Of a DNA stretch of 64,000 nucleotides, positions 3,197-4,294 are shown in pieces. The stretch is taken from the NCBI RefSeq assembly GCF_056746865.1, contig NZ_CM163382.1, one strand, 5' to 3'. The notes under the pieces are model-generated. The model was not told the DNA's origin. It was given only the letters and a program-made list of their open reading frames with translations, and ran no database searches. The translations under genes were made by a program, and so were the position numbers. Numbering within the stretch: position 1 is the stretch's first letter; every line of letters begins with the position of its first letter.

Positions 3197-4294
3197 TTAT
3201 TTTCTTGATAGGCTTTGTATAGTATGAATAAACCTTACAAAGTTATGAAGAAGCTCGTGATTTTCCTCTGATATACCATCTGGGTCAAAGTGCATCACGT
3301 CGTTACGAATTATTCTGACCTTGTCGAGCTCTTTAGTAAATATTTTCTTATCTATTTGAAGTTCGGTTTTTTTCCACAATTCTGGATTTTCAAAAAGTCG
3401 TATATATTCCCCAAAGGTTAAATCTGCGACCGACTCTATAACCCGTTCGCTGTCAAATGGATTAACGATGCTAACAAGCTCATCTTTCGTAAATTTTCCA
3501 TCTATCAGCTTACGAATATGATTTTCGATTTCAGATAGTAAAAGAAAAGGTTCTGACAACTGTCTGAACTGAGAACTAAGATCGGTAGTAGTTATAATCC
3601 CACTAATTCTTTGATCAGAAGATCGCACTAATACGTAAGCATACTCAATAATTCTAGGTAGTGCAGAAAAAATAGAGTCACTGGCGTTTATTTCCCTGTG
3701 TGGCTTCATATAATCACGCACAACCGCAGATTCTGATTGGGTCAACGCTAGTATTGGAGCAATGCTTTCCCAACTAATAACACCTTTAACATCTCGCTCG
3801 CTGGTCATAACGGGTAGTTGAGAGTAGTCATGCCGCAACATCAATGTGATGGCTTCTGTTAATGTAGCGTCAGGTTTCACGGTCACTAGTTTAACATCCG
3901 ATGCTTCGAGTCGACTAACACGGAAGGCTGGCTCGGAAACTGCACCGGAAATTAGTTCATCATGCGGCTGAAATACTGTTTCAGGTGTAGCCAATTCGGC
4001 GTTACTTGATTCGGTTTCTTCATGTAAACATTCACCTGCTTCATGGGGCGTTGCGTCATTCCCCGGAGGTGCATAGATAGTAATTTTTGCATCCAGCGGC
4101 ACACTATCAAAATCAGGTTCGGTTTTAACTCCTAAGCTTTCTAATGCTTTGCGAATTTTGTACGCAACCATGTAGCCTCGACGCTCTGCGCCAAACCAGC
4201 TTATGAATTCTCGCACTGATACTGGGTTTGAGGACATACCGTCTTTTAGTTCACGAAGGATTTCGTTAAGTCTTTCTCGATTTTCTACTGCCAT
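3197..4294 (-). CDS. CBS-pair domain protein with C-terminal HEPN-like Rx4H motif; candidate defence/toxin effector
   Basis: 365-aa ORF with GGAGAA SD before the ATG; two CBS-like modules (VKLVTVKPDATLTEAITLMLRHDYSQLPVM...VKGVIS and VVRDYMKPH...RISGIITTTDL); C-terminal IRNDVMH fits the HEPN Rx4-6H pattern. Confidence 0.65.
   Translation of the reverse strand: MAVENRERLNEILRELKDGMSSNPVSVREFISWFGAERRGYMVAYKIRKALESLGVKTEPDFDSVPLDAKITIYAPPGNDATPHEAGECLHEETESSNAELATPETVFQPHDELISGAVSEPAFRVSRLEASDVKLVTVKPDATLTEAITLMLRHDYSQLPVMTSERDVKGVISWESIAPILALTQSESAVVRDYMKPHREINASDSIFSALPRIIEYAYVLVRSSDQRISGIITTTDLSSQFRQLSEPFLLLSEIENHIRKLIDGKFTKDELVSIVNPFDSERVIESVADLTFGEYIRLFENPELWKKTELQIDKKIFTKELDKVRIIRNDVMHFDPDGISEENHELLHNFVRFIHTIQSLSRK

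Follow-up and report, generated by a model that had tools for sequence, protein, structure and literature searches.

Does a single gene that joins a CBS pair with a HEPN-like RNase motif encode a phage defence, and is the defence new? Such a gene stands near the start of the window, the whole 64,000-nucleotide stretch of DNA analysed here:

3197-4294, minus strand: DS-11 gene, 365 amino acids plus stop, from an ATG start (ORF list)

The encoded protein is WP_000257686.1 over 365 of 365 residues, by an exact string match to Table S8 of the DefensePredictor study (PMC13092281). Table S6 of the same study equates its working id IMPD with DS-11 and with WP_000257686.1 (PMC13092281). The name DS-11 originates there, in bioRxiv 10.1101/2025.01.08.631726 of January 2025 and in Science 2026 (PMC13092281). 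DNA 100% identical to the gene occurs in many complete E. coli genomes of RefSeq, where the product is annotated as WP_000257686.1, and the newer RefSeq records already name it 'CBS domain-containing anti-phage protein'.

The family model agrees with the string match. NF053863.1 'DS11_antiphage' of NCBIfam is an equivalog model with a curated cutoff of 260 bits, and its description names an anti-phage protein that contains a CBS domain. It matches the 365-aa protein with 404.9 bits and an E-value of 1.8e-121, covering positions 1-305 of the 305 in the profile. PADLOC-DB v2 (2023) holds no DS-11 model. The identity is established by these comparisons, and the window gene is a copy of DS-11, a published, mutation-tested and NCBI-named single-protein defence of E. 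coli. It is not new.

An earlier interpretation from the letters alone, called here the sequence-only reading, did not recognise the combination as a named system. On this point it was mistaken, the system being already named DS-11, tested and given the NCBI family model. As to the rest, it had arrived by sequence alone at the correct architecture and role for a known system. The 365-aa ORF, the two CBS modules and the C-terminal Rx4H segment that it described are all present, in the ORF list, in Pfam and at residues 330-335, respectively. As a discovery the gene adds nothing, since it copies a published and named defence protein. The additions made here are a winged-helix-like N-terminal domain with conserved arginines, the association of the neighbouring recombinase with different cargo elsewhere, and a correlation with phage SAM lyase.

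DS-11 was reported to be a system of a single protein, which has CBS and HEPN domains (PMC13092281). Expressed from a low-copy plasmid with its native promoter region, it gives E. coli MG1655 protection from T3 and Bas67, and this strain tolerates the gene on its own (PMC13092281). The protection is moderate and narrow, covering 2 of 24 phages, with the −log10 EOP values in Table S7 of 3.0 and 1.6 for T3 and of 1.7 and 1.4 for Bas67 (PMC13092281). It is lost by each of Y157A in the CBS part and R330A and H335A in the HEPN part, whose −log10 EOP values are −0.6 to −0.3 (PMC13092281).

The published strain list holds the R330A, H335A and Y157A mutants, and the first two alter residues of the very motif that the sequence-only reading had singled out (PMC13092281). 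All three residues whose mutation kills the defence, Y157, R330 and H335, are present in the window protein. Both the protection against T3 and Bas67 and the need for these residues are established in the literature for this exact sequence. The suggestion of a ligand-gated HEPN nuclease in defence likewise coincides with the published model for DS-11, in which Y157A, R330A and H335A abolish the T3 and Bas67 protection. The authors' AlphaFold3 model, a predicted dimer of DS-11 together with two ATP molecules, has an ipTM of 0.59 between the protomers and of 0.88 to ATP (PMC13092281).

The domain anatomy was established from two sets of homologues, one being 47 aligned sequences and the other 150 representatives of 50%-identity clusters. 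They show a four-part layout of N-terminal domain, linker, CBS pair and C-terminal helical domain:

4061-4294, minus strand: N-terminal domain, residues 1-78, of predicted winged-helix-like topology (H-S-H-H-S-S), from predicted models and conservation
3935-4060, minus strand: acidic variable linker, residues 79-120, predicted to be disordered (pLDDT below 50)
3560-3934, minus strand: CBS pair (Bateman module), residues 121-245, with the Y157 codon at 3824-3826 and a G232-x-x-T235-x-x-D238 motif
3200-3559, minus strand: probable Swt1/Abi2-like HEPN domain, residues 246-365, with RNDVMH at 3290-3307 and conserved E257 and R261 in its first helix

Glu makes up 8 of the 42 linker residues, and the linker varies in both length and sequence in the alignment.

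The CBS pair is the part most readily recognised. The only Pfam matches in the protein are two CBS motifs, one over residues 133-178 (E 1.9e-9) and the other over 192-240 (E 0.018), and the tandem motifs are predicted to fold as a pair. The G-h-h-T/S-x-x-D motif of CBS domains is ribose-binding. In the second CBS module it reads G232-I-I-T235-T-T-D238, of which G232, T235 and D238 are each kept in 148-150 of the 150 representatives, and its equivalent in the first module is GVISWES, without Asp. An aromatic residue occupies position 157 in 138 of the 150.

A fold search with the whole protein returns CBS pairs as its only matches and is silent on the other domains. AMP-binding and ATP-binding CBS pairs match that of DS-11 equally well. 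The PDB sequence search yields unrelated CBS proteins only and no solved structure from the DS-11 family.

The C-terminal domain is helical and carries the RNDVMH segment as residues 330-335. The Rx4-6H motif alone is weak evidence for HEPN, because 29% of the shuffles of the DS-11 protein have a bare Rx4-6H in their last 70 residues, and it is the conservation that supplies the weight. R330, N331 and H335, which make an Rx4-6H whose R is followed by a polar residue, are retained by 146-147 of the 150 representatives, and E257 and R261 are invariant in 150 of 150.

The HEPN assignment of the sequence-only reading has some support from profile matches. Pfam gives no HEPN match on the E. coli protein itself, and on the homologues it gives HEPN_RiboL-PSP at 3.4e-4 and HEPN_Swt1 at 1.4e-3, the latter with four members at E up to 0.1. 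The HHpred search of the DS-11 authors reports HEPN_Swt1 with a probability of 0.98 and HEPN_SAV2148 with 95.7 (PMC13092281). The predicted fold of the C-terminal domain is compatible with HEPN. Our search of the HEPN sub-alignment against the profiles of solved structures gave nothing usable.

We propose with high confidence that DS-11 is a stand-alone anti-phage protein, in which a CBS-bound adenosine ligand is needed for a dimeric Swt1/Abi2-type HEPN to cut RNA and lower the phage yield. The CBS pair would bind an adenosine-containing ligand, and this binding would be needed to activate the dimeric HEPN nuclease. Once activated, the nuclease would cut RNA during infection, so that phage growth is stopped and the yield lowered. 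A role in sensing, or in binding the substrate, is probable for the conserved winged-helix-like N-terminal domain. We infer RNA as the substrate, the dimeric action and the need for an adenosyl ligand.

The architecture has precedents. Within the Swt1-like HEPN clade, fusions to CBS and to CBS+HD were listed in 2013, with a proposed response to nucleotide ligands that acts on RNA stability (Anantharaman et al., PMC3710099). Two of them, alr3009 and Pelobacter gi 118580987, have in common with DS-11 a CBS sensor fused to a predicted active Swt1/Abi2-type HEPN (PMC3710099). The 2013 fusions may contain an HD domain, whereas the DS-11 family is without HD and has the conserved winged-helix-like N-terminal domain. 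A phage-defence role for the CBS–HEPN architecture was neither proposed nor tried in the 2013 paper (PMC3710099).

Two other groups of HEPN proteins differ from DS-11. In Csm6 and Csx1 of the type III CRISPR systems, the CARF domain of a CARF–HEPN protein binds cyclic oligoadenylates made by Cas10, whereas in DS-11 the sensor is a CBS pair and no signal synthase accompanies it. Therefore, its signal would come from the host pool or the phage. In the matched entry of the AbiF/Abi2-family HEPN abortive-infection proteins (PDB 8vz6), an AbiF dimer is bound to a non-coding RNA. In contrast, DS-11 carries its CBS sensor within the protein, and no RNA is detected near its gene by Rfam. A permissive Rfam scan around DS-11 gave no associated RNA, and a promoter and terminator scan gave nothing convincing for DS-11.

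What the CBS pair senses may be narrower than a general nucleotide. The SAM lyase of T3-like phages starves the SAM-dependent restriction and BREX systems, and its product is 5′-methylthioadenosine (MTA). Both SAM and MTA are ligands of CBS domains. One alternative, which we regard as unlikely, is that the DS-11 CBS pair senses the phage SAM lyase via a burst of MTA or a loss of SAM rather than ATP, AMP or nucleotides in general, and that DS-11 guards against this anti-restriction enzyme. The lyase would raise MTA or remove SAM, the change would be read by the CBS pair and turn the HEPN on, and the N-terminal domain would add target binding, a sequence of events that we likewise rate as rather doubtful.

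The alternative comes from the phages affected. Autographiviridae are represented by three members of the published panel, T7, T3 and Bas67 (PMC13092281). In Table S7, DS-11 has rows for T3 and Bas67 only, its mutants were tried on those two only, and T7 has no DS-11 row although it was on the same plate (PMC13092281). Gene 0.3 of T3 is a SAM lyase (901-1359 of L013). Bas67 (MZ501064.1, a Berlinvirus) has a 'SAM hydrolase / restriction inhibitor' at 4776-5231 of L014, 66% identical to the T3 protein with E 2e-74. Gene 0.3 of T7 is instead Ocr (925-1278 of L015), and T7 has no SAMase.

SAM lyase in both phages with a recorded DS-11 effect, and Ocr in T7, suggests a possible trigger. A T3-type SAM lyase occurs in 472 phage records, and in a sample spread over these the genomes are of 37-44 kb except for one record of 7.8 kb. 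The defence loss by Y157A fits ligand activation, and it agrees better with an activating ligand such as MTA than with de-repression through SAM loss. A literature search over titles and abstracts found no SAM-lyase-triggered defence.

However, the correlation is drawn from two phages that are sensitive and a related one that is not, 3 of the 24 panel phages, and T3 and Bas67 have many other non-T7 genes in common. The insensitivity of T7 is read from a missing row in a table that lists only the combinations with a phenotype. Moreover, the equal matches of AMP-binding and ATP-binding CBS pairs do not favour SAM or MTA, and the ligand modelled by the authors is ATP. If the idea is true, DS-11 immunity would recognise an anti-restriction enzyme of the phage by way of the metabolite. 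The correlation makes the ligand question cheaply testable.

The surroundings of DS-11 bear on whether it is a defence or a toxin that stabilises its own island. The nearest features are as follows:

1679-1736: 58-nt element, copy 2, a direct repeat of 3066-3123
1844-2866, plus strand: PD-T7-5 homologue (PADLOC PDLC04110 PD-T7-5, E 9.8e-102; also phrog_8571; a hypothetical protein in RefSeq)
3066-3123, plus strand: 58-nt element, copy 1, between the 3′ ends of the DS-11 and PD-T7-5 genes
4648-4886, minus strand: 3′ part of a disrupted tyrosine recombinase gene (comparison with the uninterrupted locus L001; Pfam Phage_integrase)
4887-6196, plus strand: IS3-family element of 1310 bp (orfA and orfB ORFs; missing from L001)
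6197-6563, minus strand: 5′ part of the disrupted tyrosine recombinase gene (comparison with L001)

DS-11 is convergent with the PD-T7-5 homologue, a separate single-gene defence. Therefore, two validated defence genes lie here tail to tail, and a defence-island context is established for DS-11. In the DefensePredictor supplementary text that was searched, no accession of a gene neighbouring DS-11 occurs.

The toxin explanation, that DS-11 belongs to an addiction module of toxin-antitoxin type and that the phage protection is a side effect, is very improbable. HEPN proteins are often toxins (PMC3710099), and the gene does lie in a mobile, recombinase-linked segment. However, no MNT or other antitoxin partner is found, the nearest genes being the convergent PD-T7-5 homologue and the recombinase. 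The tolerance of MG1655 to the DS-11 gene alone and the occurrence of homologues as single genes in unrelated contexts also speak against it.

The recombinase is of 200 aa, FimB-sized, and consists of the catalytic domain only. As the sequence-only reading put it, DS-11 lies downstream of and co-directional with the recombinase gene. This stands with two corrections, that the DS-11 gene is on the minus strand and that the recombinase is interrupted in the window. The IS splits the recombinase gene at 4886/4887 and begins 593 bp upstream of the start codon of DS-11. It has terminal inverted repeats of 25 nt (4887-4911 and 6172-6196), an ATA target duplication, and an ALIL frameshift pseudoknot at 5222-5338.

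Compared with the published DS-11 (WP_000257686.1), the protein is the same in full and the window differs by the IS-split upstream recombinase. In other DS-11 strains, the IS is absent or at another place, and one strain has an IS between DS-11 and the recombinase. In strain S1-ISR-02-A, an IS is at a different site of the same island.

The gene for the 200-aa recombinase is found in 886 of the 5426 E. coli genomes and at 42 plasmid places. Downstream of it, each sampled locus (the window, L005 and L008-L011) has something different: DS-11, a dynamin-family pair, an ETEC_3214-family protein or hypotheticals. The recombinase locus looks like a hotspot of recombinase-linked variable cargo.

The two 58-nt copies flank the PD-T7-5 gene and are 76% identical, where none is expected by chance. 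About 280 further E. coli genomes, which lack DS-11, have related copies, and in one of them a copy is at the far end of a different cargo adjoining the same recombinase. The element may be a site of recombination or a remnant of the backbone. The possibility of an attC-like hairpin was dismissed, as the folding z-scores of −0.15 to −0.83 give the repeat no hairpin potential.

Further repeats lie by the recombinase start. A perfect 14-nt inverted repeat (6619-6632 and 6760-6773) flanks 127 bp between the recombinase start and a divergent gene and resembles an invertible switch. Inversion of a promoter there by the FimB-sized recombinase was considered and rejected, the flipped orientation being found in 0 of 840 genomes. 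At 6561-6599, the Shine-Dalgarno sequence (GGAG) and ATG of the recombinase gene lie within a perfect inverted repeat of 15 bp, whose arms are 9 nt apart. In the transcript, this repeat would fold into a stem-loop that could block the start of translation.

Other ORFs of the region were noted in passing. The gene divergent from the recombinase is an ORF of 191 aa (6924-7499, plus strand), and other genomes have different genes at that position. Another island ORF (8132-8461, minus strand) matches phrog_30303. Neither of the two has a Pfam, NCBIfam or PADLOC match. Farther away, an ORF of 750 aa (17329-19581, plus strand) lies in a stretch of 33-39% GC just past a tRNA with a CAT anticodon (16694-16769); it has a faint alpha-amylase match only and no defence-model match.

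The N-terminal domain of DS-11 is absent from the discussion in the DefensePredictor main text (PMC13092281). Both models predict the same elements in it, helix 3-17, strand 25-26, helices 27-32 and 41-53, and a hairpin of strands 57-59 and 70-74, and this predicted order is that of a winged helix. In the two-domain model of the N-terminal and HEPN domains, whose pTM is 0.71, the block-mean pLDDT is 90-98 over most of the N-terminal domain. Of the 150 representatives, 137-147 retain R28, R38, R39, T58, P60 and F62, a conservation that matches that of the catalytic residues.

Sequence searches with the domain give faint, non-significant matches to the winged-helix families AlkZ-like, Cac1_C and HTH_20. 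A search for the domain in other architectures gave nothing but truncated DS-11 fragments. The sole match in the profile search of solved structures, to the EF-hand-like repeats of CFAP115, is weak (E 0.005) and was set aside as probably spurious.

Such a domain next to a CBS pair raises the alternative of a transcriptional regulator, in which the C-terminal helical domain would be a dimerisation or effector-binding module and not a nuclease. Besides the winged-helix topology, the top Foldseek matches of the N-terminal plus C-terminal domain model are GntR/FadR-type and PadR-type regulators, and DS-11 has weak NCBIfam matches to CBS-containing regulators. However, the Foldseek matches are non-significant (E at least 0.04, TM about 0.2), and the Rx4H residues are conserved as in the active HEPN families. 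The published HEPN_Swt1 probability and the loss of phage protection upon mutation of the Rx4H residues also oppose it. Altogether, a regulator is hardly credible.

DS-11 is present in 128 of the 5426 complete E. coli genomes (2.4%), always as a single chromosomal copy that is at least 99% identical. The DS-11 gene is accessory and not core. The two findings that the sequence-only reading had named as refuting it were the lack of a HEPN fold in structure prediction or profile searches and a housekeeping protein of core genomes; given the HEPN profile matches, the compatible predicted fold and this distribution, both checks favour that reading. The GC content is 0.407 in its ORF and 0.519 in the core-gene part of the window, so the AT-rich accessory segment described by the sequence-only reading is borne out. 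A housekeeping CBS-domain metabolic protein, hinted at by the weak CBS-level similarity to IMP dehydrogenase, CBS and CbpB, has practically no likelihood left, as it is refuted by this distribution and opposed by the AT-rich segment adjoining an IS and a recombinase and by matches that are limited to the CBS pair and far under the family cutoffs.

No match to DS-11 was found in the phage genomes searched. The plasmid search gave a few distant homologues, and its sole identical match is a 4.9-Mb record that is evidently a chromosome. Haloarchaeal plasmids have CBS–HEPN relatives without the N-terminal domain. The family is large, with 766 clusters at 50% identity matching at E up to 1e-30, and its named close homologues are mostly of Proteobacteria (Pseudomonas, Burkholderiales and Gallionella). 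The Pseudomonas corrugata homologue is at the end of a P2-like prophage, and the Crenobacter homologue lies in a conflict-system cluster amid DUF87, CTD6, MC2, AAA_23 and HNH genes.
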